DNA from: Tubulanus polymorphus
Taxonomy: Eukaryota; Animalia; Nemertea
Length of the DNA: 64,000 nucleotides
Assembly (NCBI RefSeq): GCF_964204645.1
Contig: NC_134027.1
Span: 12,804,485 to 12,868,484 of the forward strand
Reading direction: 5' to 3'
Every line of letters starts with the position of its first letter. Positions within the stretch are counted from its first letter, which is position 1. Below are positions 2,613 to 32,716 of this stretch, piece by piece. A model generated the notes under the pieces. That model worked only from the letters and a program-made list of their open reading frames with translations, was not told the DNA's origin and searched no databases. Both the position numbers and the translations under genes were made by a program.

Positions 2613-2765
2613 AATAATCACGCGGATATCAATAGGGTTTTCTGTGAAATAACAGAAAACCCTAATAATCACGCGGATATCAATAGGGTTTTCTGTGAAA
2701 TAACAGAAAACCCTAATAATCACGCGGATATCAATAGGGTTTTCTGTGAAATAACAGAAAACCCT
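2613..2765. repeat. Three 51-bp tandem repeats, each with a 12-bp-stem hairpin
   Basis: Unit AATAATCACGCGGATATCAAT-AGGGTTTTCTGT-GAAATA-ACAGAAAACCCT x3. Confidence 0.9.
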
Positions 2766-2793
2766 AATTATTACTTTTCAAGAATTAGATGCT

Positions 2794-3532: not shown

Positions 3533-3538
3533 AATAAG

Positions 3539-5220: not shown

Positions 5221-5609
5221 CTATTTGTATACCTATGTATTAGATACCCTAATACCTGATACCCCATTAGATACCCTAATACCTGATACCCTATTAGATA
5301 CCTTGAATACTTAAAACCCCCTTTTTTAAAATAAATGTTATTTATACAATTTTCAACCAATTTATTTTTATTTTTTCATAAAACATATGAATAAGTTTGA
5401 AAATAATAAAGGTTATTTATTATTACTGAGGTTTCAATATAAATTTAAAAAAGAAATATAATTTAAGGTATTTTCAAATAATATGTATTAAATACGTATT
5501 AGATACGTATTAGATACGTATTAGATATGTATTAAATACGTATTAGATACCTTAATACTTAAAACCCCCTTTTTTATTTACTATTATTTTATACAATTTT
5601 CAACCTTTA
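5221..5609. repeat. Repeat-rich spacer between convergent Polinton gene blocks
   Basis: Repeated TATTAGATAC(C/G) units plus a duplicated TAGATACCTT..AATACTTAAAACCCCCTTTTTT..TTTATACAATTTTCAACC block (~5296-5358 and ~5544-5605). Confidence 0.7.
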
Positions 5610-6479: not shown

Positions 6480-6511
6480 TTATTATATAATTTTTTATTA
6501 AAGTTAAAATT

Positions 6512-7760: not shown

Positions 7761-7780
7761 TTATTTAACAAAAAAATTAA

Positions 7781-9469
7781 TTATTCATTTTTTATCATGT
7801 TTACTAATCCAAAAATAATAGCACTTACAACTGTAATTAAAAATAAAATAATATGTTCAGCAGCAAAGTTAATAATATTCCCAGCAGATTTCAATATAAA
7901 ACCAACAATTGATGCAATAACTCCTGGCAATGCTGCAGCAGATTTCTTTGATAGTTCCCATAAATATTTTGCTAATTTCTTTAAACCATCTTTAACTTTA
8001 TCTTGTATAGAATTATTATCATTCGGGGGTTTATCCGGTTTATTTGGAATTCCAATTGTTGTAAATAACATAGTTACAGCTGTTAGAATTGAAAGAATTG
8101 TTATTCCTTCTAACTTAAATAATAATCTTATTCTATCTTTTAGTGATATGTCAGAATTTGGTTTTATCAACAAATCTTTAAAAATAACTTTTAATCTAGT
8201 AATATTATAATCATATGATTTTAATAATAATTTAATTTCTTCTTTTTGTAATTCTATGTTATATTCTTAATCATCTTTTTCTTTTTCTAAATACGCATTT
8301 CTTTTTTTAAATTCAATTTCTTCAATAACTTTATTATCTCTATCTAATTTTAGTTGTTCTATTTCTTTAATTTTATCAGTTCTATCTTTTTCTAAAAATC
8401 TAATTTTAATATCTCTTTTACTTTTTTCATGCGCAATTTTATCAGCTGATTCTTGCATACCTTTAATTTCTCTACGCGCTTGTTCAGGAAATGCTTCTAA
8501 TTCATCATCATTTAAATCAAATAATCCTTTTTCTAGTAAAGATTGTATTCGATTTATTCCAGTTTCAGCACCGGGTGTATCTAAAACACTATTCATCTCT
8601 TCTTCAAATGAATGAATTGTATCTAACATGCTATCAAAATGTTTTACTAATTGTAATTGACTTGAATCATTATCAATTTGTTGAATATCTCTTCTCGATG
8701 TTTCGGGTGTTGAAGATCTTAATTTATCTAATCGATCTTCATACTCTTCCATTTCTGGATCAACATTAGGAGGATTTAAATTTGGATTTTTAAATGGTGA
8801 ATATTTGTTAATATCAATTTTAGGAATTGGTTCTTCTTCATTTATTCTATCGATTGCATTCCATATAATTCTGAGAAATTCTCTACCACCTTTTGAACGT
8901 TCAATTGAAGATCCTGCACGCATTTCAGGATGGTACAGATCTTCTTGTCCCATTTTAGATAATTGAATTGATACAGTTTCGTTATTTAATTCAACTTTAT
9001 AAAACCATGAATCATTTTTAAATTCTAAATTATTCATGAAAAATGGATCATCTTCTACAATTTGTATTGCAATATCTTCTGGTTCAATGTTATATGTTAC
9101 ATTTTTTGGTAATAATTCTTCAATAACTGTATTTGTTACACTATGTTTTATGTATAATAATTGTTTTTTCAATTCAGGGTTTTCTGTTCTTTCTAATCTA
9201 TTAATTAAATCTTTTCTATCTGGCCTAGTTTTAATCATTATCTTATCGAGGGATTCTAAATAATCTATTAATTTTTCACTTGTTACAGTATCATATTTAA
9301 ATTCATCATAATCATATAATATAGGCCCACTAGAATCATCTTCACCTAAATTAGTATTATATGCTGATTCATCATCATTATCAATATTAGTTTCATTAAA
9401 ATCAGGTTGTGGTTCATCACTTATATAGGGGGCGTCACCAAAAGTATCCATTGGAATATCTTCTTCCAT
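7781..9469 (-). pseudogene. Large acidic/coiled-coil Polinton protein with C-terminal hydrophobic helices, split by one in-frame stop at 8267-8269
   Basis: The 400-aa and 130-aa ORFs are in frame, and the 93 nt between them read open (EYNIELQKEEIKLLLKSYDYNITRLKVIFKD). Confidence 0.7.
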
Positions 9470-9664
9470 TTATATAATAATGTTTTGTCGTTTTTCTCTA
9501 TATTCTTCCGCTGCTTTATTGTATTTCTCTAATGCTAAGTTATGTCTTCTTTGTTCTCCTAATGAACTATTTTTATCAATATGCTTAAATAAATAACCGC
9601 CACCAGTAAATGCTAAAGCGTTAACAATTGCCGATCCTATGATAGTTAGAATTGCAGAAGCCAT
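9470..9664 (-). CDS. Small Polinton protein with hydrophobic Gly/Ala N-terminus and EQRRHNLALE motif
   Basis: ORF track; abuts the next gene via TAA-ATG. Confidence 0.65.
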   Translation of the reverse strand: MASAILTIIGSAIVNALAFTGGGYLFKHIDKNSSLGEQRRHNLALEKYNKAAEEYREKRQNIII

Positions 9665-9688
9665 TTATTTAGCAAAAAAATTATGCAT

Positions 9689-9910
9689 TTATATGGGAGG
9701 AATATATTTTTGTTTTTCCAAATAATCAACAGTTAAATTAGATAAAGTAACTGCTAATGTTAATTTTAAAATATCATTGATATCAAATCTATCAACATTA
9801 ACACTTCCCATTTTGAATACCTTTTCTAATACCATTGAATAACCAACATTTCCAACTGATAGTAATGCTCCATTATATAATCCAGTTATTATCCACTTAT
9901 TATCACTCAT
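9689..9910 (-). CDS. Small Polinton hypothetical protein
   Basis: 73-aa ORF preceded by the shared TAAATAAATG motif. Confidence 0.6.
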   Translation of the reverse strand: MSDNKWIITGLYNGALLSVGNVGYSMVLEKVFKMGSVNVDRFDINDILKLTLAVTLSNLTVDYLEKQKYIPPI

Positions 9911-10270
9911 TTATTTATCAAAAAAATTACTATCTTCAAAATATTTAGTTAACTTATTTATGATTAATTCAACATTTATTTCATTACTACTTTTATGATT
10001 ATCATATATTTCAATTATTATTTTTTTAATATCATCTATAATAAAATCTTCATCTAATTCATAAAATCTTAAAGATTCTCTAATTAAATTAGTAATCTTT
10101 TCTACATTTAAAGTTTCTTTATTTATTGTTGTTTCATACTCAAATGTTGTTTCATTAGAAAATGCAATATTTTTGATATGTGTAATTACATCATTAACGT
10201 TAAATTTCAATTCTTTCTCACGTTTAAAATCAAACCCAAAACATATACTCGGTCCAACAGTTATATTCAT
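9911..10270 (-). CDS. Polinton hypothetical protein
   Basis: 119-aa ORF tightly packed in the cluster, with shared upstream motif. Confidence 0.55.
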   Translation of the reverse strand: MNITVGPSICFGFDFKREKELKFNVNDVITHIKNIAFSNETTFEYETTINKETLNVEKITNLIRESLRFYELDEDFIIDDIKKIIIEIYDNHKSSNEINVELIINKLTKYFEDSNFFDK

Positions 10271-10286
10271 TTATATGGTGAAAAAA

Positions 10287-11042
10287 TTACTCTCTACATC
10301 TTATAACTAATTCATATATCACAGGAAAGTTATTCAAATCAATTAAATATCCATTATGATTTCTTATTTCTAATTTAAAATTATTAAATTTAGGAATGCA
10401 TGGTTTGAAATCACATTCTGTTAAATTATAATTTATTTGAGTTCCAAATTGTTTAACATTTTTTAGCGGTAAAATATTTAGTATACTAGATCTACAAATT
10501 GTTTCTTTAGTTGCTTCGAAAGTTTTTGTAGGCTCGATTAAATTGCAATAAATATAAAAGTGTGTAAAAGGTATTATATTTGAGCTGCCTTCTGCGTTTC
10601 CAGTAACTGTAAGCGGTTTAATTCCTAACATTTTAGCCAGTGGTTTGTTTACCATAAATTTATGTTGTTCATTAGATATCTTTATTCTTATTTTATTAGT
10701 ACTATCAATTTTATTAAATTTAATTTCAAATACAGAAGTGCCCCCGATTTTCAACCGAGCTCTTCTATTAATTTCCTGCGCAAATTATTCTGAATTATAT
10801 AATCCTGGTTTTAAAAATACATGAAACCATTTATCTTTATTTCTCATACAAATCATAAACCCTCTATGTTCAAAAGTTTTATCTGATATATTATAAAAAG
10901 AATTACATAAACTTATATTTACTAATTTTAAATCAACACAATTCTTGAATTCTCTATCTAATTGTACTAGTAAATTATGAGATTTATAATTAGTAAGTTT
11001 TCTTGAATCAACAAATATTCTGTATTCTTTTAATTTCGCCAT
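10287..11042 (-). pseudogene. Minor capsid (penton-like) protein with an in-frame stop at 10785-10787
   Basis: 85-aa and 155-aa ORFs in frame; IFVDSR..NSFYNI..PGLY..LAKMLG..YIYCNLI..IDLNNFPV pattern typical of Polinton pentons. Confidence 0.75.
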
Positions 11043-11056
11043 TTATTTTACATATT

Positions 11057-11410
11057 TTATTCGAAATCTATTTCATGGTGCCCTTTTTCATTCTTACCTT
11101 TGTATACGAAATAGAAATCACCAGAAAATAATTCTTCTAAGTCTTCACTTGATAATCTATGAAATCTATCTGGTAAATATGTTCTGAATTTATATGTATT
11201 TCCTTTTAATCCTTCATATTCTAAGTGTATAACTAATTTATCTCCATATTTGTTAGTCACTGTATCAATATTTGTAATTAGATATTTCTTATGGATTGTT
11301 AATTCTGTTAACTTCTTAAATTTATAATCTACTGATTTGACATTTGAAGTATCTTTTATTCTATCTAGAAATGATTTGTTGTTCTCACTGTGCGTTTGTT
11401 TACTCTCCAT
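11057..11410 (-). CDS. Polinton small beta-rich protein (possible OB-fold/ssDNA-binding)
   Basis: FKKLTEL..KKYLI..TNKYGDKLVIHL..YLPDRF; lies next to PolB. Function is inferred only. Confidence 0.55.
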   Translation of the reverse strand: MESKQTHSENNKSFLDRIKDTSNVKSVDYKFKKLTELTIHKKYLITNIDTVTNKYGDKLVIHLEYEGLKGNTYKFRTYLPDRFHRLSSEDLEELFSGDFYFVYKGKNEKGHHEIDFE

Positions 11411-11439
11411 TTTAATAACATATTTTTATTAAAATTTGA

Positions 11440-14400
11440 TCAACACGTTAGAATTCTTTTCATTATCTCGTTCTCTTTTGTTTCTTCTCTTTTAAATTTT
11501 AAGTATTCATCTAAATTACATCCATAAGCAACTGTATGAATTCCATCATCTAAAATATATCTTTTATCATCAAATGGGTTTAGACTTATCTTTTCAATTT
11601 CTTCAATAAACATTTCATGATCTTCAGATCTTAAACATCTCATCTTATGTTTTCTAACTTCTTCATTGAATATACAATTGATGTAATCTTTGAAATGAAT
11701 ATTCTTTTCTACTACACTTTTGGTTATTCCTTTTAACTTTTTAGCTTCATGAGTTTTAGTTTTATATGAATACATTTTAGATCTAATACCTATGAACTCT
11801 ATCATTTCTTCACCACCTAGTTCATCCTTAAACTTCCCTGGAACTTTTTTATTATCATTGCTAAACAATTCATGATATTTAGGATAATTACTAAAATCAA
11901 AATGATGTTTTAATGTTTTTAAATCATCTGTTATGTTATCAGTTTTTATCTTTAATATGTAACTGTCGGTATCAAAATATAATATTTCTATATGTTTTTC
12001 TCCAAAAAGTGGTTGTAATACATTATAATAGAATTCATACATTAGTAATTTTGATAATTCTAAAACTGAAGCGCCAACATAGATTGGTTTATTAAATTTC
12101 ATTGATGTTCTTCTCATTTTAACTGCAGCTAAATTTTCATCAAATATTCTGTTACCAATGAACTTAGGATATGTTGGTAAATGTCTTATCCTTTTACCAT
12201 TACTGACTAACTCAGTATCATTTCTATTTCTAATATTTTCACAAGTTTTTCCATAGAATGCATTATTCATTAACTTGAAGAAATCTTTTTCGAAATCAGT
12301 TTTAGCTTCAGTTCTCTGTTTGGTGTTAAAATCTACATATTTTTCTAACCACTTAGATTGGCTAAATGAAATATATCTATGTACTTTTTTTAGAATCATT
12401 CCTTGATTCAAATAAAACTTTAACATTCTATAATGTACTACATAATTATATTTATCTTCTTGAGTTACCATTAACTTTTCTGTATGAATATGATTTTCGG
12501 GTTTAATTCTTTTTTGATAATTTGATAATTCTTCATGAGTTACGGTTTTATGTTCGGGACAGTAAGCTAGATTTCTAGATTTAAATTTAATATGTTCAGG
12601 ATATTCTAAATCTACAACAAAGAAGTAACCAATATCTGAATCATCTGCAATATCTAGAATTCTTTTCTTCCAATCAAATTTATCATTATTTTCATTCTGT
12701 AAAACTTCACTTATTTCAAATACTCCATAAGGTTGTGGTTCCATCATTGCCCAACCATACAAATTATTTGCATCTATATATAATAACTTATATCCAGGGT
12801 TATCATTTACATTGAAATATCTATCCCCTAATACACCTGAAACTCCTCCTCTTATAGATTTTTCAAATAATAGTAATTGATCTATATTTGTTAACAAATC
12901 CATTTTTATATCTGTAAATTTTAAACCACAATCCCATGTTAAACCTGGTGATGAATAACAATGACAAGGATCAATGTTAAAATATTTAAGGTTAACATCT
13001 CTAAACCTTTCGAATATATCGGTTAATAATAATACATCTGATTTTAAATATATATCTACTAATTGTCCATGATTTTCTATTTTGAAATGATTCCAAATAT
13101 TCAATGTTCTATTATATACTTCATCTTTAACATATTCATTTTTTAATTCATCATAGAATTGTTCTTTTAATAATTCAGTTATGTTAAAATCATTATGATT
13201 TTTATAGAAAGAATATGGAATTGCGCCTTTATATCTCATTAATTGGAAATCATCATTATTTGGATAGTGTTGTTTTAATATCTTTAATTCATCATCAACT
13301 AATGATTTTGATAAGTTATCTAATGAACTATTTAAAAATCTATATGAATCTATAAATCTTAGGCAACCAAATTGGAATGATATATAATTCTCAGATGTTT
13401 TAGCTAACATTCTAAATTTATAAGTTGGTATTTTATCTTTTGATCTATTTGAATTTAATATTTCTATTTCATTATTAATTTCTTCTATTTTATGGCATAA
13501 CTGTTTGATGAATAAATGTGCATCATATCCTGATAGATTATAAAATATAACTGGTACAAAATTAATTTTCTTAGCTTGTAAGTTACAATTCTCATGTGCA
13601 GCGCCTCTAAACTTTCCATTCAAATGACCATGGTCTCTTACTTTTTTATCTCTAAAATTAAATATCTTTTCACAATAATAACATTTATCTGCAAACTCAA
13701 ATGCTTCTTTATCTTCTTCTTTCATTATAATTTCTATATTCTTATTTAACTGTTCATTAAATCTTATTTCATATTCAATTAATAAGTCACAAAAATGATT
13801 GATAACATTTTCATTTCTATAATGATAATATTCACTTTTAATTAGTTCTGGATAATCAGATTTAATATATAACCCGAAATCAGCAGCTGATTGATGAATC
13901 TTTTTAATAGTATTTGTTTTTGGTAGTTCTTCAGAATAATCATTTTCATAAGAATTTAATTTCTTTCTCTTATAATGTATTTCTTTTCTATCTTGATCAG
14001 TTAGTTCTTTATTTAATGATTCAAAATCTCCATATATTACAAATGGTACTTTATTTTTGTAATCATGTTTTTTGAATTCTAATATTTTATCCTTTTCATT
14101 TGGTAAAACTAATTTACAATAATCATGATTTTCACATAATTGTTTATGATTTAATAATGTACTTTCATTACTGAATCTATGTAAACATTTTCTACAAAGA
14201 TATATTTTATGGTGATCATTTTCTGATTTAAAAAATAAATCGATTTGTTTAATCCACATTTAATGATTCTCATAATATAGTATATCTATAACATCGTTTG
14301 AATCATAATCTTTTGATAGATATAAAGGTTCTAATGTATAATGTTTTATATTGTTACCTTTTGTATTTGGTAATTTGATTAAATCAAATACATTTATCTT

Positions 14401-15350
14401 TATATTATTATCTCTTTCTATTTTTGGGATGTTTGTAATTATAACAGGATACTTATCTATCTTATAATTATTTTCAAATTGTTTATAATTTGTTAATCTA
14501 TAAGTATGTTTATTATAATCTTCAACTGGGTGTAACAACTTATTATAGCCCATAGAAAACATTTATCATCTTCATTTTGTACATTTATTACAGCATTAGT
14601 CTTAAATGGTAGTTTAATATAACTCGATGCTTCAATATCTGGTTCTTTATAATATGATACATTATTTTCATCAATTGGTTTCGATTTAGTTAACTTATTA
14701 TATTTTGTGTTATAAACATGTTAAGTCATAAATATTATTTCATCAAATATTAAACCAGATCCTTCAAAATATTTCTCTTCTATTTTAGTTTTTACTTCAT
14801 TATAACATTTATCTAATTTATCATCTATATGTTGTTTAGATATAGTATGTGGTGAATGAGAATTTATATTATATATTGGTTTATCTTCAGATGTTATGAA
14901 TTTAACTTTAACTGATATACTAATTTTAGGATATTCAACATCAGTTATTATTTTTATTATTTCTTTCATATTTTCTAAATGTTTTTTATTTTCTTCTAAT
15001 GTTTTTCCTTTATGAAATTTAAACTCGATAGCTGCTGGGCCAATATCACTTTTAAATGCTTCGGTTATCTCTATATCTTTTTTATTATCTAATGAATTAA
15101 TATAATTTCTTACATCTTCCATGTATGGTCTTTTATTGTTTAATTTATTTTTTATGCTTTTAATTGTCTTCTGTTTCTTATCATTATCATTATCAAAGTT
15201 TTCTCCACCTAAAATATCATTATTGATATTTCTAATATGACTTTTAGATTTTAAATGTTCTTTATAATATCTTTTATCACTGAATGATTGATTACATGTA
15301 TCACATTTGTATGTTTCATTCTTTAATTCATCTAATTTTTTATTAAAATT
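11440..15350 (-). pseudogene. Protein-primed family B DNA polymerase, copy A (intein-free); catalytic 939 aa intact, N-terminal part broken and truncated
   Basis: Exo YGDFE and YNLSGYD; endonuclease-VII-like CYYC..RDHGHLNGKFRGAAH..CN; pol YIDANNLYG, KLMNNAFYGKT, YFDTDS. Upstream pieces (14260-14562, 14721-15122, ZnF CDTC..H..H near 15250-15310) are separated by a stop and frameshifts. Confidence 0.93.
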
Positions 15351-15529
15351 GATTTTAGAAGTTCAATGATTTATATCATGTATTATTTCAATCTCACTTT
15401 ACTAACACTTTTAATGTTTAAAAATCTAACTCATACAAATATGAATATTGAAATAATGTTGTAAATATATACTTTTATATTGAATAATCTGTCAATTTAA
15501 ATGTTATTCATGTATATGAATATTTTAAG

Positions 15530-15939
15530 AGTAATAGGGGTAATGGGCTTTCAGGTTAAAGGTTGAATGGTCGAGTTCATTAAAAAACAAATATCAAAAG
15601 TAATTTAAAACTATAATATATTTTCATAACCGTGTGTATTTCAGTTGAATAATAGAATAATTATTATTATTTGAATATATTTGATTATATGAATTTGTGT
15701 ATTGTAAATAAATCAATTGGTCGCGGAGCGGAGCGGTAGCGAAGTGGAGCGACCAATTGATTTAATACAATATGCTTTTTAAATTTAAATTATTGATATC
15801 TTAGAATAAATATTTAGTTATAATATAAAATACACACGGTTATGAAAATATATTATAGTTTTAAATTACTTTTAATGTTTTGTTTTTAATGAACTCGACC
15901 CTTCGACCTTTGGCCTGAAAGCCCATTACCCCTATTACT
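15530..15939. mobile_element. 410-bp MITE-like foldback element with ~110-bp TIRs and a central hairpin
   Basis: AGTAATAGGGGTAATGGGCTTTCAGG... / ...CCTGAAAGCCCATTACCCCTATTACT; inner AAATCAATTGGTCGC...GCGACCAATTGATTT. Confidence 0.85.
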
Positions 15940-18900
15940 GAGGTCGTTCAATACAAGATTGATTACAATCAAGAAAATGAAGAGCGGTTAAAGAAAATGT
16001 CTAAAGAAGATGTTGAAAAGGAAGAAAAGACTGAAAACCTGTACAAGGAAAATTATTTCGACATGTTGGCAAAATTATCAAATCTAGAAGCCAAGGTCTA
16101 TAAGAAAGAAAAAAGTAAAGCTTCGAGAGAGGTCAGTCCTGAATGACGAAGTATAGTATCAGCCGCAGATTTTAATAAAGGGCTTGCTGATGCCTTCAAG
16201 GGGATGAATACTGGTATTACAGGTGACCAACTTCAACAAATCCTTGGAACATTGACTCAAAAGAAGCGGGAAATACAAATTCCTATATTCAAGGGTGAAC
16301 TCGATCAATTTGAGTCGTGGGTAGAATTGGTGGAAGCAGAAGTAGAGAAACCAGGTTACTCTGATGTTGAGAAGGCACATCTAGTCAAGACACTGGTGGA
16401 CGGAGATGCTAAGAAACTAGTTTTGGCGTTACGTGATCCAACCTATGACAACATCATGAAGGCTCTAGACAACAAGTATGGGGATGTTCACACAAGGCTA
16501 CAGAAAGCCATTGTTGATATTTCAGCGATTGAGCCAGCAATGACATTAAGTGTAAAGGACTTGGATCCTCTCTATACCAAGTTATTATCTTGCTGGAATT
16601 ATTTGATGAAGAAGACAGAGTCTGATGTACATCTTATTAAGAGTAGCTGGGTGTTAACATCATTAGTTCGACCAAAACTGCCAAAGTCGTTGGTTCGAAA
16701 ATGGGAATCTGATTCACTCAGGAATGAGAAAAGAGATGAAAATAATGACGGTGAACAATCTACTGATGAATATACCACTTCAAATCTTCCGATGAGGTTT
16801 GACCACATGTTTAACAAGATACAAGATGCGCTCACTGTAGCTCGAAGATCAGACGGAGAAAAGGGTGGTGGTGGTAAATTACATGTAGAAAAGAGATTTC
16901 AACCTCGGAGATCTAGTACTACAGCCACAGGGCATCCTCTTCAAATTTCCAAAAGTACTGAAGAATCTGATGATAACGCTAAGACATGTATATTTTGTAG
17001 TAAACCTCACTCGCCATGGTTATGTGATGATATGAAGAAAATGTCAGTTACTGAACGGGCAGACTGCGTAAAAAGAAGTAATGCATGTTTCAACTGTCTA
17101 AAAAGAGGTCGCAATGCTCGTCAATGTCACAGCAAGATGAGATGCAGAAAATGTAAAAAGAGGCATTGCGATATACTACACAGAGAAACATCAAGAAATG
17201 AACATGAGAAAAAGCAGTCTACAGATTCAAGGTCTAATGAGTCTAATCTAGCTGATGATAACGATGATGAAGTAACCAAAGTAAAGGGCGCTTGTGGTCT
17301 TGTCAAGGTCGTACAAGGACCCAAGAAGATTGTAATGCAAAGTGGTCTTGTTAATTTGATATCAAAATCTAGTGAAATTACTGGTAGATGTTTGTTTGAC
17401 ACAGGTAGCGATGTGTCCTTTATTCGAACTGCTGCAGCTAAACAGTTGAATTTGCAAGGTCCGAAAGTTGATGCAGAATTTACTTTAGCTGGTGGTCAAA
17501 GTATGAAGATTAAAACTCAGAAGGTAAAACTTCATGTGTCCAGTATTATTCCTGATTGGGATGGTGAAGTTTTCGAAGTTGTTGCTTACGTCTTAGACAA
17601 GCCATGTGCTGACCTAGGTTCGGTTGATGTGGACATTTCTACCATTCCTAAGTTTAAAAACTTACTGTTCGCTGACAAATTCCCACGAGGGGAGGCGAGC
17701 GTTCATATACTGTTGGGAATCGAAGACACGTTAAGAATCATGATGGACTGTTCGATAAAGGACGATGATGGTGCACTAGTGGCACAGAAAAGCCATGTTG
17801 GTTGGATTTTGTCTGGTCCTTGCAGTATTAATTCAGATTCAAGAATCATTGAAGAAAAGTATCCGTTCTGTAGAGTAGATATAACAGATCCGACTGAGAT
17901 AGCGGTCAAGCATTGGGAGCTGGAACATATTGGTATATTACCGCGTGAAGAAAGTTCCAAGTTTACTATTTTGGAGACTGATGCTTTAAAGCAACATGAA
18001 GAAAAACTGTTTTTAAAGATGGTAGATACGAGACTGGTTTACTCAAACATCCTGATTGGAAAGATCGCAAGTTGAAGTCTAATCGAGTAATTGCTGAGAA
18101 CCGTCTGTATGGAATTGAGAGAAGATTAAAAGGGGATCCAGAGTTAGCATCACAGTACAAAGAGCAAATTGATGACCTTATTCTTTCTGGAAGAGCAGAA
18201 TTAGTTATCGAAGATGAGGAACCAACTGATGGACGTACTGTATGGTATCTTCCTCACCATCCTGTTCTCAAGAAAAGCAGTACTACAACTAAAACCAGAA
18301 TAGTGAATGATGGTGCGTCGAAGGGTCCTGAAGGAATTTCCATTAATGACACTCTGATTCCTGGTCCAGCACTCCAGCCGGACATACTAGCAATTCTTAT
18401 ACGATTTCGCCAACACAAGGTTGCGTTAATTGCTGAAAAAATGTTCCATCAAATCGGGATCAATGAAAGAGACAGAGATAGTCTACGTTTTCTATGGAGA
18501 GATTTGAAGACGGATGAACCACCGAAAATCTATAGAATGACACGTGTGGTATTTGGTATTTAGTCGTCGCCTTTTTCAAGTATTAAAACTGTGATGGATC
18601 ATGTTGAAAGTTGCAAAGATCGTTACCCCAAGGCATGTTCTGAAATAAAGGAAAATATTTTTGTTGATGATGTAATCTCCGGAGCAGATTCTGTTAGCGA
18701 CACTGCTTCACTGGCTTCAGACATGAAGGCTATGATGACTGAAGGAGGGTTTCCCTTAAGAAAGTTTATATCCAACAAACCAGAATGTCTCAAAGGGATG
18801 AAAGAAGAAGATCTTGCTTCATACCACATGGAAATAACTGATAATGGAGCGGTTACTAAGACACTGGGAGTTAAGTACAGTCCCAAAGATGATGTTTTGA

Positions 18901-21339
18901 TGTTTGGTATTAGTAATGTTAATGTTGAAAATGGTATTGACACACGTCGCACTGTTTTGAGTACGTTAAATCGACTGTTTGATCCAACAGGTTTTTTGTC
19001 ACCATTTACTGTACGTGGTAAGATGATATTCCAGAAGTCATGGGTTCAAGTTCCTGGTTGGAATGATCCACTCAGTGAAGAATTACAAGTACCGTGGTCA
19101 AAATGGATGAACCACCTTCCATTATTAGAAGAAATAAGACTTAAACGGTGTTTGATTCCAGAAGATGTGACTGATCCTGTATATACTCTGATGGGGTTTG
19201 GAGACGCCTCTGAAGCAGCCTATGGTGCGTGTGTATATTTGGTTATAGAAGATCGGTCAACTGGTAATCGACACTGTGAATTGATATGCTCAAAGACTAG
19301 TGTATCACCGTTAAAATCAAGACGTAGCATTCCAGAGTTAGAGCTCATGGCTGCACTTATTAATGCCAGATTGGTGGACTACATAAAATCTCAATTGAAG
19401 TTAAACTTTGAAGATGTTTACTGTTGGACAGACTCTAAAGTTGTTCTAGAATGGCTACGCAAACCAGGGTACACCTGGCAAGCATTTGTTGGTCGGCGAG
19501 TATCTGAAATACATGGAATTGTACCTCCATCAAATTGGAAGCATGTTCCTGGTGTTGAAAATCCAGCTGACTTATGCTCAAGAGGATGCAGTGCCTCTGA
19601 ACTTATTAAATCTGAGAAGTGGTGGTATGGTCCTGAATTCTTGAGGAAATCTAAAGATAATTGGCCATTGCAGGACAACAAAACTACTCAGACAGCTATT
19701 GAAACAGCTTTGAAGAAGAAGTCAAAATCATTTCCAGTACCAGTTCTACAAATTGCTGGTGTTAATGATTCAAAGATTCAAGATGATGAGTCAGACAAAA
19801 TTCAGAGGAATGAAAAGAAAACTAGCTCAACGTCACAGGATAAGAAGATTGAAGGCTCTTGTGATGAAGAAGATCCATTGTTGTATTATACAAAGTTGTT
19901 CAGTTCACACTTCAGATTCATACGAGCTATGTCACGTGCTAGATCATTGCTTAGCAAACAGAAATCGGCTGTATCCAGTGAAGATGAAGAATGTAAGTTG
20001 GACTTATGGAAACAAGAAGAAAAGTTCTGGCTTAAATGGGTTCAAAGCAAAGAATTTCCAGGTGAAATTAAGGCTCTACAGGAAGGTCGTCAGCTACCGA
20101 GATCCAGTAGCCTCAAAAAGCTAGATCCATTCCTAGATGAAGATGGTTTAATAAGAGTCGGTGGTCGTATCCAGGAAGCTTTGTTGCCAGAAGAAACTAT
20201 TCATCCGATAGTGTTGCCATGTAAGAATGAACTGGTTGAAAAACTTGTTATCCGACATCATCGACGTGATAGTCATACTGGTGTTGAGCAGACTCTAGCA
20301 AGTTTACGTACCAAGTACTGGATACTGCGTGGTAGAAAATAAGTTAGTCGCATTCTATACAAATGTGAATGTCGAGAGCCTGAACCAATGAAGCAAAAGA
20401 TGGGTCGCTTACCTGCTGAAAGAGTAAATGTCTCATTGCCCTTCAGCTGTGTTGGTGTAGATTTTGCTGGTCCACTCTATGCCAAGAAGTCAAGAAATAA
20501 GGACATCAAGACGTATATTGCATTTTACTTGCATGGCTACCAGAGCATGTCATCTAGAGTTGGTAGAAAGTCTGAATACCAATGATTTTCTAGCCGCTGT
20601 AAGACGGATGATGAATCGGAGAGGAAAGGCAAATACAATTTACTCTGATAATGCGAAGACCTTCAAGAAGGTATCTGAAGTCCTTACTATACTGTACAGT
20701 CCACGGAACAAGAAGAAAATTCGTGATAGTCTTCACCATGAGGGAATAAAATGGAAATTCATTCCTCCGAGATCTCCGTGGGTTGGCGGTTTTTATGAGC
20801 GCCTCGTAAAGAACGTCAAAGTGCCTCTACGAAGAGTTTTGGGAAAAGCAAGATTATCTGTATCAGAACTTCAGACAGTTCTCACTGATATTGAAGCTCA
20901 AGTGAACTCGAGACCACTTCTAAGCGTTTCGTCTGATCACAAAGATCCACTGCCGATCACGCCAGGTCATTTGACTGTTGGGAGAAATTTACAGTGTATT
21001 CCTGATGATGATTCAATCACACAGAAGATGGGTTTGGATAAAAGATGGCAGCTTTCACAGAAACTTTCGAAACTTTTTTGGAACCCGTGTTATAAAGAAT
21101 ATGTTGCAGGTCTCAACATAAAAAGAAAATGGTTCGAAGAACAGGGAAATGCCAAGGTTGGAGGTGTGGTGTTGATCACAGACGACAGTAAGAAGAAGAT
21201 GGAGTGGCCAATGGGTAGAATTGTTGAAGTACATCCAGGTCGTGACGGACTGGTAAGATCTGTTACATTAAGAACTAAGTCTGGGTTGATTAGGAGATCA
21301 GTTCAACGTCTCAGGCTTCTTGAAGGAGTCAAAATTTAA
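15940..21339 (+). pseudogene. BEL/Pao gag-pol polyprotein with several frameshifts and stops
   Basis: Zn knuckles CIFC..H..C, CFNC, CRKC..H; protease LFDTGS; RT YLPHHPV..RIVNDGAS, FVDD; RNase H GFGDASEAAYG, WTDS, NPADLCSRG; integrase VDFAGP, SDNA, GGFYERLV; WPMGRI..HPGRDG. Confidence 0.92.
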
Positions 21340-21670: not shown

Positions 21671-21914
21671 TCAAGAAATATCCAAAGTAATCCTTATGAC
21701 CAAAGGTAACACCTTTATCAAAAATTAAAAAGGCTCTATGTTCAATAGTTTTATTCGATATATTATGAAAAGAATTACATAAACTTACATTTACTAATTT
21801 TAAATCTACACAATTCTTAAATTCTCTATCTAATTGTACTAGTAAATTATGTGATTTATAATATCTAAGTCTTCTAGAATCAACAAATATTCTGTATTCT
21901 TTTAATTCTACCAT
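21670..21914 (-). pseudogene. 5' fragment of the penton-like gene, copy B, truncated at the BEL LTR
   Basis: Matches the 10785-11042 protein over ~60 aa, then runs into LTR sequence. Confidence 0.8.
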
Positions 21915-21982
21915 TATTTATAACATAAAAAAATTACCGCTCATCACTAAAAATTAATTTCAATAAAATTTTTCCTAAATAA

Positions 21983-23204
21983 ATGGATGAAAAGATAGCA
22001 TGTGAAATTTGTGGTGAACTTCTAAGAAAAAGTAATATGGCTCGACATATGAAAAAACATGATGAAAATTATAAACCCCCTAAAATAAACTGTCCAAATT
22101 GTAATAAATTATTCTCAAGAAATTATGTTAAAAAACATTCAGAGAAGTGTAAAATTAATGACACAACGGTTAATGTTGATAGTAACGAAAGTAATAGTAA
22201 TTCTGTTGAAGTTGAACCTGAAATTATTTGGAAAAGACCTTTCTTATTCTATGATAAGGATAATATAAAAGATAATTTCTGTGAGCCTTGTCGAATAAAA
22301 TATAACCCTGAAAATATAGAAGATTGGGAGAATCATCAATTTCGTAAAGTACATATAGATAAAATTTCTAATAAATTTGAAACAGAATTCAATGAAAGAA
22401 TAAATAGTTTATTAGAAAAAATAAAATATGAGAAAACGTTACCAGATAATAAAGAAACAGTTGAAAAGTTAGAAAAACAATATAATGAATTAGTAAGAAA
22501 AACATATTATTGTAAATATTGTAAATTAATTATTACAACAAGTTATTCAAATCTACATAATAGAACAATAAAACATAAAGAAAACGTAAGTAAATACCAA
22601 GAGCTAAATGAAGATCTATTACCAAGAAATGATAGAAAAAAATGCCCACAATGTATTTATGAGTACTTAAGACAAGAAGGTCCTATTTTGTAATGAATGT
22701 GGATGGCAAAAGAATTTATGGGGTTATAAAAAAACTAGAGATATTCTTATAGAACCAAAATCAAAATATCTAGATGAAATTTTTAAGATATTTTCTATGG
22801 AAGATCATACACCAGAATATAAGCAATGGCTTGAAAAAATGAAAATGATAGAAAATAAAAATGGAGAAATAACTAAGAAAGATATAATAAAAACAATTAT
22901 TCCATCAACATGTAACACAAAAGAAAAGAAAATGTATTTATATTTATTATTTAACGATTATTATAAAAAACCTAAATTAACAGAAGAAGATATGGAAAAT
23001 ATAAAAGAAACATTCAAAAATATTAAGATATTATGTGGATAATAGAATAACAGATTCAATTAATTATGAATTTTAAATAAGATTGTAAATTCTTTAAACA
23101 TCGATATTATAATTCCATTTGATGAATTAACGAACAAAAAGAAACAAAGAGAGCGAGATGAAATATGGTACAAGATAGAACTTTATTTAAATGAGAAAAA
23201 TTAA
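21983..23204 (+). pseudogene. Multi-zinc-finger protein fused to a VLTF3-like (poxvirus A2-type late transcription factor) domain; frameshifted
   Basis: C2H2 fingers (CEIC..H..H, CPNC..H..C, CEPC..H..H, CKYC..H..H). Joined frames give CPQC-x8-EG.LFCNECG and a C-terminus SINYE(F)ILNKIVNSL..PFDELTNKKKQRERDEIWYKI. Confidence 0.6.
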
Positions 23205-23296
23205 ATGGAAGAACCTAAACAAATTATACAAGAACAATTAAATGAAAAAGAAGAAACCAATGGTGATTTCGAGTTTGATGATATTGATTTTATGTT

Positions 23297-26200
23297 TTAA
23301 TAACCATAAGGTAATGTTTTTATTCCATCATCTAAAATATGCCTTTTATCATCAAATGGATTCAAACTAGTTTTTTCAACTTCATTAATGTACATCTCGT
23401 GATCTTCTGATCATAAACAATTCATTTTGTGTTTCATTACAATTGAGTTATATAAACACTTAATATAATCTTGAAATTCTATATGTTTATCAACCACGTG
23501 CTTTGTTATTCCTTTTAACTTTTTAGCTTCATGATCTTTTGTTCTATAACTGTACATTCTACTTCTTATCCCAACAAATTCAATCATTTCATCACCCCCT
23601 AATTCATCTTTAAACTTACCAGGAATCTTTTTATTATCATTACTAAATAGTTCATGATCTTTGGGATAATTGCTAAAATCAAAATAATGTTTTAATGTTT
23701 TTAAGTCTTTTGTTATATCATTTGTCTTGATTTTTAGTATGTACGCGTCCGGATTTTTTTTAGGATTAATGGGAACCCAGAATTGAATGTTCCATCATCT
23801 GTTGATAAATCATAAACATAATCTGTTGGGTTATATATTTCAAATAAATCATTAACTTCTTCTGTTAATTCTTTTTCTACACGCCTTAAATTAAAACAAT
23901 TTGGTTTAGATTTAATTAATTCAATATTCATATTAAGACCTAATGAATTGCATAATATATTTAACCCTGATATAGCAACTTTTCCGTTCTGTGCAAAGGT
24001 TATCTTTTTATCCTTTGTAATTTTTTTAGAGCCATCTGCAGCATAGAATCCAATGAAGAACCATTTTCTTAAATTATATTTTGCATTTAATACATAATCT
24101 GGAACTATCTTTTCTTTAGTTGAAGTATTACTTTTAACTATTGCATGAATATAGAATTCATCATTATATTTTGTAGCAAAATCTTTAGGATTATTTACAA
24201 ATATTCTATATAGCGCGAATGATTTCATATGATCCACGATTCTAAATATTTTATGTGAATAAACTTCTTCACAGAATTTCTTAATTCTTTCTAATAATTT
24301 CAAATCTTGATTGCATAAATACCAACGATATTGAGTGCGATTTACATATTTATACACACCTGCTGAACCATCTCCCATAAAAAATCCTTTGATAAAATAT
24401 TCTTTTTCTTCTAATGTTTCGGGTTCTATATTATAAATATTATCAATTACTTCATCAAATGACATATGATTCTTTCTTTGGAAAAATCTTTTATGTAATA
24501 ATTCATCTCCAATTTTTATATCAGTTGGTTTTATTTCATCACCATTTCGTTTAATTAAACTATGATCTTCTGTAACATCTACAAACCCTAATTTAGTTCT
24601 AACTCTATAGATTTTCTTATTTGTTTTATGCCTAATGATATTCTTTAATTTTTTCCATTTCTTGTCCAAACATCCATTAATTCATTTATTTGTATTAATT
24701 CTTTTTCACCATATGAAATATAACATTCATTTTGTTTTGGAATTATTTCTGAAATTCTTCTTACCAATATTTTATTATTACATTTTAATAATATTGGGGT
24801 GTCAGCTGTTACAGAATCAAAATATAAGATTTCTATACGTTTTTTCCCAAAAAGTGGTTGTAGAACATTATAATAAAAATCATACATTAATAATTTTGAT
24901 ACTTCTAAAACAGTTGAATCAATGAATATAGGTTTATTAAATTTCATCGTTCTTTTTAATTTAACTGCTGTTAAATAATCTTCAAATCTTTTATTTCCTA
25001 AATGTCTAGGACTTGATTGTAAATGTCTTAATCTACCAGAATTATTTACTAATTCAATATCACTTCTATTTCTATTATTTTCACATGTTTTACCATAAAA
25101 ACTACTATTCATTAATTTGAAGAAATCTTTTTCAAAATCTGTTTTTAATATGGTTCTCTGTTGAGTATTAAAATCTATATATTTTTCTAACCACTTCGAT
25201 TGATTAAACTCAATAAATCTATGTACTTCCTTTAATTTCATTCCTTGTTTTAGATACAATTTTAAAATTCTATAATGAACAATATAATTATATTTATTAT
25301 TTTGTGTAAGTATTAATTTTTCTGTAAAAACATGATCTTTCGGTTTTATTTTCTTCTGGTATTCACTTAAATAACTATCATCTACGGCTAAATGTTCTGG
25401 GCAATATGGTAAGTTTCTTGTTTTAAACTTTATGTTATCAGGATATTCTAAATCAACTACAAATAAATAACCAATTGGTGCTTCATCTTTTAAACTCGCA
25501 ATTGCGCTTTCCCAATCAGTTTTATCATCATTTTCAACTTCTGTTAATATAAAATTTTTGTGTTGTTGAGGTTGCATCATTGCCCAACCATATAAATTAT
25601 TGGCGTCAATATATAATAATTTATATTCATCATTTGCTTTAAAATGTCTATCTCCCATAACACCACTAATTCCACCTCTAATTGATTTTTCAAATAATAA
25701 AACCATGTCTGGTTCTTTTAATAAATCCAATTCTACATTTGTATATTTTAAACCACATTGCCAGGTTAAACCAGGACTTGAATAACAATAACAAGGATCA
25801 ACATTAAAATGATTCAAATTAACTTCCTTAAATTTTTCAAATATGTCAGCCAATATCATAACATCTGATTTTAAATACAAATCTACTAATTCACCATGAT
25901 TTTTTATCTTAAAGTGATTCCAAATATTTAATGTTCTATTAAAAACTTCATCTTTCACATACTCCTCTTTTAATTGATCATAAAATTGTTCTTTTAATAA
26001 TTCTGTTACATTAAAGTCATCATGTGTTTTGTTAAATGAATACGGAATTGCGCCTTTATATCTCAATAATTTAAAATCTTGTTCATTTGGGTAATAATGT
26101 CGAGTTATTATAAAATCATTATCAACTAAACTTTTTGCTAAATTATCTAATTAACTTGCTAGAAATCTATAAGAATCTAAAAATCTAATGCAACCAAATT

Positions 26201-26745
26201 GAAATGAAATGTAATTTTCAGATGTCTTAGCTAATAGTTTAAAATCATATTTTCTTACATTTGCGCCATTCATAGCATTATATTCTTCTATTTCTTGATT
26301 AATTGTGCCCAATTTTCCTGATAACTGTTTTATAAATAGATGGGTATCATAGCCCGATGAATTATGCAATAATATTGGTACGAAATTAACTTTCTTAGCT
26401 TGTAAATTACAATCTTCATGAGCAGCTCCACGATATTTTGAATTTAAATGATCGTGATCTCTAACTTTTTTATCAAATGAATGAAAACGTTTTTCACAGT
26501 TACAACAATGAGTTGAGTAATTAAAATCAATTTCATCTTCTTTTGTTATAACTATTCTTTTATTTTTGTTTAATAATTTTGCAAAATCACTTTCTAATTC
26601 AATTATTTTGTTACAAAAATTGTTAACTACATCTTGACCTCTAAAAGGAATATATTGACTTTGATATAATTCAGGATAATTTGATTTTTTATGTAAATTC
26701 CATAAGCAGCAGCTCTTTGATGAACTTTTTTAATTGTATAATTAT
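23297..26745 (-). pseudogene. Protein-primed PolB, copy B, interrupted by an intein; 5'-truncated, with stops and frameshifts
   Basis: HNSSGYD, YIDANNLYG, KLMNSSFYGKT, ILYFD|intein|(P)DAYILKIK..FDFSNYP..FKDELGG..PFDDKR. Confidence 0.92.
23753..24815 (-). mobile_element. Intein (~355 aa reconstructed) with LAGLIDADG homing endonuclease, inserted in PolB motif C
   Basis: Block A SVTADTPILL directly after YFD; block B VDVTEDHSL; LAGLIDADG motifs FIKGFFMGDGS and FFIGFYAADGS; block F YVYDLST; ends ..LILKN. Two frameshifts (~24655 and the A-run at 23754-23760). Confidence 0.92.
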
Positions 26746-28339: not shown

Positions 28340-31300
28340 ACCGGCATTCTCATAATGCTTAGTGGGTGTTTTGTGTCGCTTCCGTCATGAGCTTATTGCA
28401 TTTACTGCGGACATAAAATGCATGTTTCATTAGGTCAGGGTGTCTGACAGAGATGTTCATGCACTCCGTTATCTCTGGTGGTCTGACGGAGATCTTGATT
28501 CGGATCCGGTAGATTATCGTAAGCTGGTACATATCTTTGGTGCGGTGTCGTCACCTAGCGTGTGTAATTTTGCTCTACACCGGACCGCCGAGGATAATAT
28601 CCACCTGTTCAGTAGTTTGGTTGTAAGGCCACACAAAGAAAAACCCTAGTTTCTCATCATATTGTTTTTCTGGAAAGTGACGAGGGCGGGCGGATTTTAT
28701 TAGGATTTTCTGACTTTCGTCGAAAACCCTCTTGAAATTCTGTTGATTATTATTATTATATATTTTCCGCCGATTTCGTCAAATAAAATTCATCTTCATT
28801 CAGATTCGGCAACTGACAGCTTCGAAACGAAATGTATAAATTGATACTGTAATAACGGTCTCTCTGAACCAACAGATTGTCTGAATGTACTTTCCATCCT
28901 ATTTGAAACTTAAAATTACTTATTAGGTTACTGTAAATAAAGAATTGAATTGAATTGTTAGACAACAAGCACCGGCGAAATAACAGTTTGTGACGTCATT
29001 TAGTAAGTAAATAAAGGAGGGCTCCAAGAATTTCCAAATCACGGGGACTATACTGGGGTTAGACCATTCAACCAAAAAGAGGATTGCTCCGATAATATCC
29101 AAATCATCTCATTTTATTTTTTCCATCGAATACCCGGTAATTAATTTTTCCTTACGATCACATGCATCCAGAAAAATCGCATCCGTTATCGCTGCTTTGC
29201 AGCTATATTTTTTATTGCTTTTTTAAAATAAAAAAGTTGATATAAAGAGCTCAACCTGACACTTATAGAACAGACGCGGGAGGGAACTTTTTTATATAAA
29301 ATCAGGCTCTATCGACTCATTTGATCGAAACTTAGACAATCATTTTTTGCTAGTTTCACGCTTCCTCGAAATTAAGTAAAAGGAAACGAGCCTGGCGCTG
29401 TTTTTGTCATCGTAAATGTGGATTACCAGTACGTGGAGGATGAGCTTATAAACGCCAGCAGAAAATAAACAATGCTGTATGCTATACAGCTATGCGGGCG
29501 AGTGGGTTTTAATTTTTATAAAAAGAGACGACTGATGCTTTGCCGACGCGGGCGAGCGCATTTGTGTTTTTAATTTTTATTAGGGACTTTTTTCATGACG
29601 CGGGCGGCGGCATTTGACTTTCTTGAGAAACTAGGTAACTGTGTAAGATGGGCTGCGGTTGGGATGATAAGTTACCCCACGAGTATGTAATTCCATTTGA
29701 AAATTGGAAGTCAGATTTACCTGATATTGTCAGGGTATCTATTCTAAGGTGTATCAAACCCCCCGGGTTCAAGGTTATTAATGCTCAGTTACATCATTTC
29801 GCCGATGCGTCTCAGGACGGCTACGGATTTGTTACTTATTTGCGGCTGCGCGACGATAACGATAAGGTTCATACAACGTTAGTAAACTCTAAATCTAGAG
29901 TTACTCCGCTTAAAGCGGCCAGGTTGGAGTTAGCTGCTGCAACCTTAGCGAGTGTCAAGCAGGTAGATTCTGAGAGTAAAGGTGACAATCATGTCATCGC
30001 TGACGATACCGGTTACATGTTATTAAATATGGCTAACAAATTCACTTCTTGGTATAAGCTTACGGCTGTTACCGCATGGGTCTTACGTTTCGTCAAAAAT
30101 CTGAAAGCGGCAGTGACCGCTAAACATGACAAAGGTGTACAAAGGTATACAGGGTTTATGACCGTTCCTGAGACCAGGCATGCATAGAAAGTATTACTGC
30201 AGGCTGTGTAATCAAAATATTACAGTTACGGAATGAAAATTCTTTCTGGCGTTTGCAGGAGGAAGACTTTGAAACAGGCTAGCCTATAAGCCCATAAAAA
30301 GGTTGGACCCGGTATTTGAAGATGGGTTACTTAGAGTTAAAGGTCGTCTTGCAAATTCCAATTTGCCTTACAGTAGTAAGCACCCTATAATCTTGCCAAA
30401 GGGCTCTTATGTTACTAGGTTGATAGTTACGTACTACCATAGGTATGTGGTTGGGCATTCTGGGCGGAATCATGTCTTGGCGGCTATTAAAGGGAAATTC
30501 TGGATAACGCGTGGTAACTCACTAGTGAGATCTGTCTTGCGTAGTTGTGTAGACTGTATTAAAGGACAAGGTGTGGTGCATGGTCAAAAGATGGCTAATT
30601 TACCCGCTGACAGGGTAACCCGATAAACCTCCATTCACTAATGTCGGTATAGATCTGTTCGGACCTTTTATGGTCAAAATCGGTCGCAGTCAGTTAAAAC
30701 AGTACGCTGTATCTTTACTTGTCTGGCTTGTCGTGCAATACATATTGAAGTTTTGCATAGTATGATACTCCTTCCTTTACAAACGGTTTGAGGGGATTTA
30801 TTGCCCGTAGAGGTTCAACGGAGTTGATCCGATGTGACAACGGCTCGAATTTTGTGGCGACTGAGAACTCAAGATTTGTATTTCAAATTGGAATCAACAG
30901 GAAGTGTCCAATTTCTTGCTACAGCGGGAAATAAATTGGAAGTTTAACCTGCCTGCTGATAGCCATTTTGGTGGCGTCTGGGAAAGATGCATCCGCACCA
31001 CAAGGAAAATACTGGGTGCTCTGCTGCGTCAGCAGACGTTGACTGATGAAAGTTTGCAGACGCTTATGTGCGAGGTTGAATGTGTTGTCAATAGCCGTCC
31101 GTTTACCCATGTTTCTGATAACAAAGATGATATACATGCTTTGACACCAAATCACCTCTTATTACTGCGCCCTGGTGGAACCTTGCCACTTGGTATGTTC
31201 ATAAATACAGATATATATGTGTGTCACAGATGGCGACAGGTACAATACTTAGCTAACATTTTTTGGCGCCGGTGGAATAAGGAATATCTGCCCCTCATGC

Positions 31301-31456
31301 AAGAACGTCAAAAATGGTTAAATCCCAGGAGAAATATAGTTACTGGTGATATTGTGTTAATCAAAGATGGTCCTGCTGCTAGGTGTAACTGGCCGTTAGG
31401 CAAAATAATTCAAGAGTTTCTTGGTAGTGACGGGTTAGTTAGAAGTGTATTATTAA
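28340..31456 (+). mobile_element. Second BEL/Pao pol fragment (RT part, RNase H, integrase); decayed and internally deleted
   Basis: ADIKCMFH, LRYLWW, HIFGAVSSP; HHFADASQDGYG; LRVKGRL..HPIILP..GHSGRNH; HFGGVWER; LTPNHLL; WPLGKI. Confidence 0.85.
28623..29636. mobile_element. Non-autonomous DNA-transposon-like insertion within the BEL fragment
   Basis: Non-coding block bounded by inverted CCTAGTTTCTCA / TGAGAAACTAGG; right end looks truncated. Confidence 0.55.
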
Positions 31457-32716
31457 CTAGGGGTCCAGGGACACCATGCCCACTTGGGAAGTGGTTTCAA
31501 ATGCTCAACTATCTAACAATTTCAATATTCAACGCCCCCTGGTGACCATATACAAAACCAATGACCTTGAAACTAACCACAATCATAGAACATGTCAGCA
31601 GCTACGATTTTCTAATTGACTGTGATAACAAAATATGCCTCGTTACCAATTTAATATGGAAATACTAAGTTATTCTACTATTCAATGCCCCCTGGTGACA
31701 ATATTCAAAACCCAATGTCCTTGAAACTCACCACAATCATTGAACATGTCATGAGCCAAGCTACAACTTTGCAATTGGTCATGGTAACAAAATATGCCTA
31801 GGTACCAATATAATAAGGAAATACTAAATTATTCTATTATTCAACGCCCCCTAGTGGCCATATAGAACAACTAATGTCCTTGAAACTCACCACAATCATA
31901 GACGATATCATGAGCTACAACTTTGCAATTGATTGTGTTAACAAAATATGCATTGGTACAAATATAATATAGAAATACTAAGATATTGTATTATTCAACG
32001 CCCCCTGGTGGCAATATACAAAAACCAATGACCTCGAAACTCACCACAATCATAGAACATGCTACAACTTTCTAATTCATTGTGGTAACAAAATATGCTT
32101 AGGTATCAATATAATGTCGAAAAACCTTTTCCCACCTACAAATGAGTACCGATGACACCAAGATGGCCGCCAATTGCGTCATAATTGGCTGATCAAAAAT
32201 ACCTAACCCAGGTATAAAACATCCCTTTTTTAAGAATAACCATCAGCAATTGCAATGAGAAATGACAAACCAGTAGGAAGCTACAGGACTCAGAATTCGG
32301 GTCAAAATTGACATTTTTGGGCACTTAAAAGGTCATAGGACGGCCATCTTGAGTCCGATCGACCCAATTCTTGTTATGCTGATGGGCCCTGGGGGGATTC
32401 AAGTATATACAAAAGATCAAGGTAATTGACCAAAGCGTCTTCAAAATTTCCCTCAAAAAGTTCAAAAACGTGTAAAAAGTGCTGATTTTGGCGATCAGCA
32501 ATGGCTGCCAGTCGGCCATCTTGATTCCTACAGGGCCAGTTTTAGGGCTAAAGATGTGTCTAGGGTAGATACATGTGTAACCCAAATATCAAGACATTAC
32601 AGTGAAGCGTCTTCAAAACTTCCCAAAATAACTGGATTCCGTCTACGGACGGACGGATGACCGACGAAAAGTGAACGCAATAGCCCGCTGGGACATAAGT
32701 CCCAAGTGGGCTAAAA
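31456..32716 (+). mobile_element. HINE-like (Helentron-associated) non-autonomous element with four ~155-bp internal repeats
   Basis: 5' GCCCACTTGGGA is complementary to 3' TCCCAAGTGGGC in a terminal hairpin; ACGG microsatellite at ~32645; second copy at 63047-64000. Confidence 0.75.

Follow-up and report, generated by a model that had tools for sequence, protein, structure and literature searches.

We found that positions 21983–23204 of the window (the whole stretch of DNA analysed here, 64,000 nt from Tubulanus polymorphus contig NC_134027.1) are a decayed copy of a gene that fuses zinc fingers to a VLTF3-related domain and belongs to a multicopy lineage of animal Polintons. Genes of this lineage and those of poxviruses in general have a putative promoter motif in common, the start word TAAATG with an upstream T-run.

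The DNA of the window is of animal type and contains two AT-rich Polinton pieces that are related to each other, A and B (24%–25% GC; the A+T content of the elements is 76%). The remnant of element B (21722–26739) lies between a BEL/Pao retrotransposon (16147–21339) and a LINE-like piece. The rve integrase and the A32 ATPase are present in element A and missing from the surviving part of B. The main features of the two elements are as follows:

2600–15939, strand not applicable: Polinton A, with rve integrase, A32 ATPase, decayed pPolB and a terminus at 15939
3533–4403: rve integrase of element A (Pfam rve, E = 0.006–0.017; 44% identity to an IMG/VR integrase)
4615–5220: A32 packaging ATPase of element A (Pox_A32, E = 3e-11)
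11057–11410, minus strand: 117-aa ORF of element A, which alternates with the VLTF3-like gene
11440–15362: decayed pPolB of element A (DNA_pol_B_2, E = 2.8e-15)
21722–21917, minus strand: 5′ part of a gene common to A and B, 89% identical to A 10850–11048 and cut at 21722; probably a minor capsid gene (putative label)
21918–21985, plus strand: divergent intergenic stretch with a T-run, a spacer and TAAATG at the VLTF3-like start
23304–26739, minus strand: decayed pPolB of element B, convergent with the VLTF3-like gene and cut at 26740 by the LINE-like piece
23744–24815, minus strand: decayed LAGLIDADG intein in the pPolB of element B, right after YFD of polymerase motif C and starting with Ser

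The pPolB of element B is 74%–77% identical to that of element A. Two capsid candidates in element A (6636–7760 and 10287–11042) fit in size and place, with putative MCP and penton labels; neither matched a Pfam or PHROG family. A cysteine protease had no match among 36 ORFs, and we found neither an RNA polymerase gene nor a VLTF3 copy in element A.

The VLTF3-like gene itself is spread over three reading frames:

21983–22693, plus strand: 5′ piece, frame 1 ORF of 236 aa with four zinc fingers and the first ribbon knuckle, CPQC (22643–22654)
22001–22060, plus strand: zinc finger 1, C2H2
22091–22150, plus strand: zinc finger 2, C2HC
22280–22354, plus strand: zinc finger 3, U1/matrin-like C2H2
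22511–22576, plus strand: zinc finger 4, U1-type C2H2 (Pfam zf-U1, E = 1.8e-6)
22684–23017, plus strand: middle piece, frame 2, with the second ribbon knuckle, CNEC (22689–22700), and the first helices of the VLTF3-like domain
23018–23070, plus strand: short frame-3 piece with the conserved SINYEF motif, aligning with pox A2 and with the relatives P0002 and P0003
23070–23204, plus strand: C-terminal helix, in frame 2 again, with a D-x-IW-x-KI motif and a stop at 23202–23204

A preliminary description of this DNA had put the pieces where we find them (CPQC in frame 1, CNEC and the helical domain in frame 2, SINYEF in frame 3) and held that frameshifts break the gene, which sister-read lengths and intact relatives bear out. 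Its breaks at ~22683 and ~23070 stand, whereas the one it set at ~23040 lies at ~23017 by the reads of run X5; the four fingers are likewise there, but one that it counted as C2H2 (22091–22150) is C2HC. Sister copies were examined in raw DNA reads from X5, a run labelled as the same species, of which about 12% was read. Reads of a length other than that of the window made up 55/130 at 22683, 99/237 at 23017 and 207/273 at 23070. Because sister reads vary in length at the three breaks and relatives are unbroken, the frame changes are decay, and programmed frameshifting and introns are ruled out. Assembly error may account for single break sites; the neighbouring pPolB, however, is interrupted by stops too. 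The stop at 23202–23204 may itself be decay, since P0002 continues in frame to ~23288.

Intact copies of the gene were sought and found. A phmmer search with the frame-2 read-through against 1.84 billion representatives returned two matches, P0002 (697 aa, 45% identical, E = 2e-29) and P0003 (446 aa, 35% identical, E = 6e-12); P0004 and P0005 belong to the same cluster as P0002. Four fingers, a C4 ribbon and the helical domain all lie within one ORF in P0002–P0005, and the finger order is the same in the window gene, P0002 and P0003. With tblastn, P0002 and P0003 cover both window frames (combined E of 1e-72 and 4e-30). Three word-index protein searches gave nothing beyond P0002, and IMG/VR scans for close relatives of the VLTF3-like gene or pPolB found none.

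The position opposite pPolB is conserved for the VLTF3-like gene: at locus L121 (6.5 kb), an intact copy stands tail to tail with an intact pPolB, in the same order as in element B, whose pPolB is 82%–83% identical to that of L121. Thirty-five bases of the intergenic stretch 21918–21985 are 89% identical in L121. The far end of L121 resembles the element A terminus (74%) and is followed by an exon that we take to be RhoGAP-like, so L121 is probably also integrated in an animal genome. Its pPolB (2138–6148, minus strand) is 1336 aa long and intein-free; it bears two U1-like zinc fingers at its N-terminus as well as a segment resembling endonuclease VII. In element A, an ORF at ~5610–6479 (minus strand) has a U1-like finger and seven 24-bp tandem units. 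The presence of U1-like fingers in both of these places suggests that the finger fusion came about by shuffling inside the element.

The gene is optional in the lineage. Summed X5 read depth is ~225–300 over the VLTF3-like ORF versus 11–18 over the adjoining Pao end, which marks a multicopy family; under a stricter threshold most core bins of element A reach ~450–800, so that A-type copies are covered no less deeply than B-type ones. The slot between the shared gene and pPolB holds the VLTF3-like ORF (plus strand) in B and the 117-aa ORF (minus strand) in A, and 342 reads depart from the window sequence behind 21915 and continue like element A (judged by eye), so the slot is polymorphic among copies. 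Thin coverage by sister reads identifies the ORF at ~5610–6479 and the stretch 8371–9304 as further variable slots of the element family. In Atlas, which uses language-model features, the 117-aa ORF (11057–11410) matched unnamed, mostly arthropod clusters (0.93), the nearest named family being phi29-type SSB (0.85, weak); it is possibly an SSB, which we treat as a weak lead.

Vaccinia A2 (VLTF-3) activates late transcription. Similarity of our gene to this factor, which the preliminary description had proposed, does not appear in Pfam. Neither Pox_VLTF3 PF04947 (cut-off 25 bits) nor PF08792 matched the window pieces, P0001, P0002, P0003 or trimmed domains, and because the PF04947 score falls below cut-off we class the family as a remote homolog and not as a Pfam member. 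Searches of Pfam, PHROGs and PDB sequences with the window pieces and the frame-2 read-through likewise gave no VLTF3. We compared the family with two sets of viral proteins. The mimi/phycodna-type set came from 120 giant-virus loci collected via a short motif (three of three tested were PF04947; 37 were aligned), and the pox set from 37 poxvirus-size loci with 36 distinct A2 proteins (both of the two tested match PF04947 and PF08792). A scan aimed at entomopox A2 gave 37 loci, the same chordopox-size records only.

Profile comparison supports the zinc-finger-fused, VLTF3-like identity given in the preliminary description, which mentions neither a lean towards poxvirus A2 nor the TAAATG starts. 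With hhalign, two natural C-terminal domains aligned to the 36 chordopox A2 rows with a probability of 96 (E = 4.6e-9, score 61.7, 181 columns), and the same two domains, trimmed, to the 37 mimi/phycodna-type rows with a probability of 82 (E = 1e-5, score 41.1). The family against the mimi/phycodna-type rows gave 84.5 (E = 7e-6, 183 columns; range across runs 135–183 columns), and pox A2 against mimi-type rows only 47 (score 34.1). Column shuffles reached at most 19.2 (40 shuffles, pox) and 20.1 (60 shuffles, mimi-type). Among 2610 sequences, a pox A2 HMM recovered P0002–P0005 (E = 1.5e-6 to 3e-5), and a mimi-type HMM detected none of the four; an HMM of 60 mimi/phycodna-type VLTF3 proteins also left the family undetected, placing only the last window piece (E = 1.3). 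Atlas returned Pox_VLTF3 for 27 of 30 matches (score 0.95), with one top cluster mostly Preplasmiviricota. The four ribbon cysteines are invariant in 39/39 rows (two family and 37 giant-virus), as are five further columns, and 18 columns are invariant across eight pox A2 and two family rows.

From these data we are highly confident that the gene is a remote VLTF3 homolog, and we think it probable that it leans to the pox type; the factor would then have come from the poxvirus side of the NCLDVs. The lean is modest: mean identity of the family pair is 20% and 18.5% to pox rows and 19% and 18% to mimi-type rows. Patristic distances are 4.3–4.4 to chordopox and 5.0–5.1 to mimi-type sequences, with the family on its own long branch, in an unrooted tree of 33 rows restricted to three groups: the family, chordopox (one pox row in three) and mimi-type (one row in two). 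A structure model of the L121 domain (pLDDT 84) was biased, as its alignment included 37 giant-virus VLTF3 rows. Its best Foldseek matches in BFVD were cowpox VLTF3 (E = 1.6e-5, TM 0.66) and then an entomopoxvirus late factor (E = 1.9e-5), and these pox matches came though the model alignment held only mimi/phycodna-type rows. Against the PDB, Foldseek with this biased model gave nothing under E = 0.001. The best 14 VIA-align rows, again for the biased model, include cyclin, ORC6, TFIIB and Brf1 chains (Z 5.6–6.6, rmsd 3–7, 84–102 aligned), and TFIIB and Brf1 rows lie at Z 5.0–6.1, which is a modest score. A modelled ribbon and cyclin-type fold would add weaker support for the VLTF3 reading. 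A family-only AlphaFold model was unusable (pLDDT 43).

The second line of evidence is the start word. TAAATG stands at 11/14 curated gene starts in the window's two Polintons (9/11 of those in the VLTF3-less element A) and at 3/3 in L121 and L122, compared with 4/180 ATGs that are not starts but have upstream DNA of like A+T content (Fisher p = 2e-12); minus three stop–start cases, it stands at 8/11 starts (p = 2e-9). Since the curated list was picked by eye after the motif had been noticed, we also applied a mechanical rule (ORFs of at least 90 aa, first ATG). This gave 8/14 for A (two of them stops inside the decayed pPolB), 1/3 for B, 2/2 for L121 and 1/1 for L122, a lineage total of 10/20 with two artefacts counted as misses, and 0/18 in the rest of the window. 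The same rule gave 5/93 ORFs in 13 other pPolB loci (IMG/VR) and 193/381 in 37 poxvirus core loci; in five AT-rich control loci (26%–32% GC), TAAATG stood at 1/25. We dropped the start calls at 14259 and 14562 because they are stops within the decayed pPolB, and the start at 23205 may be one too.

Vaccinia late promoters have a T-containing core, a 5–7-bp spacer and TAAAT(G/A) overlapping the start, as described in PMC5294985, and slippage on TAAAT-type initiators yields 5′ poly(A) leaders, yeast pPolB elements included, according to PMC6211774. In our lineage, five true starts have a run of at least five T, 3–9 bases upstream. Pox and Polinton starts are alike T-rich near −10 to −14, and the T at −3 in TAAATG opposes the A-rich start context of the control loci.

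Virophages share promoter motifs with their giant-virus helpers, as mavirus does with CroV. Common transcription signals would mark helper dependence in the same way here; virophages differ in having protist hosts and mimivirus-type helpers, whereas the present Polintons have an animal host, a pox-type signal and a presumed helper. Our leading explanation, to which we give an even chance, is a virophage-like lineage whose transcription is left to a pox-like helper, the element's own VLTF3 being optional. The helper's late RNA polymerase would transcribe the element genes, and TAAATG would act as the transcription initiator. The element's VLTF3 is predicted to serve as a TFIIB-like initiation factor that steers the helper polymerase to element promoters, and the zinc fingers may bind element DNA or RNA and so tether it. 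As the VLTF3-less element A also uses TAAATG, a cis-encoded factor cannot be the sole reader. A bolder form of this explanation, which we hold only tentatively, is that integrated, multicopy animal Polintons are the endogenous virophage of an undiscovered pox-like virus, and that one sub-lineage captures the helper polymerase with its finger-tethered VLTF3 and also carries a PolB intein. PMC11296320 describes PLVs that co-occur with entomopoxvirus occlusion bodies and are proposed to be poxvirus hyperparasites.

Host Pol II could instead read TAAATG, with the element's VLTF3 as a nuclear TFIIB-like late switch that B-type copies supply to A-type copies in trans. Phycodnaviruses without an RNA polymerase keep VLTF3, as reported in PMC12085832, so a VLTF3 can probably work with host Pol II. 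Polintons integrate and so reach the nucleus, A-type and B-type copies occur in one genome, and TFIIB and Brf1 are among the VIA-align rows for the modelled ribbon and cyclin-type fold; on the other hand, the VLTF3-like gene and pPolB share their start word with the structural-block genes, so that no early class remains from which the factor could be produced beforehand, and VLTF2/A1 and G8 partners were not found. With the initiator overlapping the ATG there is also no room for a 5′ UTR, which typical Pol II genes have. We judge the Pol II account unlikely.

Slightly less likely again, in our estimate, is that TAAATG is a by-product of packing (stop–start joints, overlaps with AATAAA poly(A) signals, AT-rich DNA) and that the VLTF3-like gene was picked up as cargo and has either a different role or none. 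Three starts (9469, 9910 and 23205) do lie directly behind an in-frame upstream ORF, but the word also stands at the VLTF3-like gene (21983, divergent) and at the L121 pPolB (element end), neither of which has a same-strand upstream gene. Of the 14 TAAATG starts (11 in the window, three in L121/L122), nine read AATAAATG, which keeps an overlapping poly(A) signal a live alternative, and against AT-richness stands the low count in the AT-rich control loci. The gene is optional and swaps its slot with an unrelated ORF, as cargo might, yet it is intact with all ribbon cysteines in relatives 35%–45% identical. We consider it improbable that, with a pox-like helper in use, the VLTF3-like protein serves as a decoy, binding the polymerase of the helper or its partners and turning down helper late genes (interference or host defence), a reading that fits the far divergence from A2 (~20% identity), the extra finger array and dispensability for spread (A-type copies being at least as deep as B-type) but not the retention of the ribbon and C-terminal motifs in full.

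Poxvirus VLTF-3 (vaccinia A2; PF04947 and PF08792) shares with the Polinton gene an N-terminal C4 ribbon and a collinear helical domain of ~180 residues. They also share the NY-x-F-x-L and terminal W positions, and a TAAAT(G) initiator at target genes (PMC5294985). The Polinton gene differs in being ~20% identical and below Pfam detection, in encoding ~220 extra N-terminal residues with four zinc fingers, and in sitting on an integrating element of ~15 kb without an RNA polymerase; it also starts with TAAATG, and the A2 starts examined do not. Yeast pGKL1/2 resemble the lineage in being of pPolB type with a poxvirus-like TAAAN initiator and 5′ poly(A) leaders, and differ in being cytoplasmic and non-integrating with their own RNA polymerase and capping enzyme (PMC6211774). 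The entomopoxvirus-associated PLVs are likewise of the Polinton class and have been put forward as parasites of a poxvirus within an animal host, but they are ~12 kb long and have a cysteine protease and no rve, according to PMC11296320. A term search of the main text of that paper returned no "promoter", "TAAAT" or "VLTF".

VLTF3 has been reported in stony coral polintoviruses (PMC11131425, citing Krupovic and Koonin 2016), on MELD virus maps (PMC8502044), in ~30% of two PLV clusters, Zephyrvirus VC123 and VC126 (10.64898/2026.06.19.733378), and as isolated copies in a sea anemone genome (PMC5294986). Given these published cases in coral polintoviruses and PLVs, the gene by itself cannot count as novel. 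The coral, MELD and Zephyrvirus elements resemble ours in having an accessory VLTF3 homolog in a Polinton-class element and differ in that zinc-finger fusion, pox lean and promoter word are not described in the excerpts of those reports, a comparison by description only. Members of our family may be listed among the genes tabulated in PMC11131425 and PMC8502044. TAAATG starts and finger-fused or pox-leaning VLTF3 in animal Polintons were not reported among the literature matches listed, and measured against those matches the zinc-finger fusion and the lineage-wide TAAATG initiator are what is new here.

A TAAATG initiator together with a VLTF3-related factor makes a signature for which any animal genome can be screened. 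Under our leading explanation, transcripts should begin within TAAATG and carry a 5′ poly(A) leader. Should that explanation hold, it would be a sign of a still undiscovered pox-like virus in the host group and of provirophage-like elements in animals. Virions of animal Polintons have not been observed according to 10.64898/2026.06.19.733378. Pfam-based surveys would miss this whole VLTF3 branch, which matters since VLTF3 serves as an NCLDV marker (PMC11253617).

The intein in the pPolB of element B is absent from element A, L121 and some sister copies. At least 34 reads skip it and read depth falls inside it, so it is polymorphic among sister copies. It matches only an archaeal PolB intein and two phage records. 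The preliminary description saw the VLTF3-like gene as a second NCLDV-linked module next to the intein-bearing PolB; the VLTF3 part is supported, and the intein matches give no support for an NCLDV origin of the intein. By term search, the word "intein" is absent from PMC10748475 and PMC11071308 only suggests intein invasions for nuclease inserts.

Several structural features of the window were noted besides. The end of element A at 15939 is sharp in reads (1191 loose reads, agreement 0.34). Its right end (15530–15939) is a 410-bp palindrome with 112-nt arms that are 93% complementary, resembling the L121 end, and its left end (2603–2775) consists of three 51-bp units. Positions 2607–2668 match 28697–28757 inverted (79%), at the far right end of B and not at A's own 15939 end, which may mean that two elements are nested here or have recombined. 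A GC-rich element at 45450–51443, presumably DIRS-like, has RT/RNase H ORFs, inverted ends (45496–45615 and 51304–51423) and an internal perfect 245-nt inverted repeat (48511–49060). The window starts with a 31-bp tandem satellite (1–1420), and a 154-bp repeat family occurs in two places, 31448–32600 and 63100–64000.
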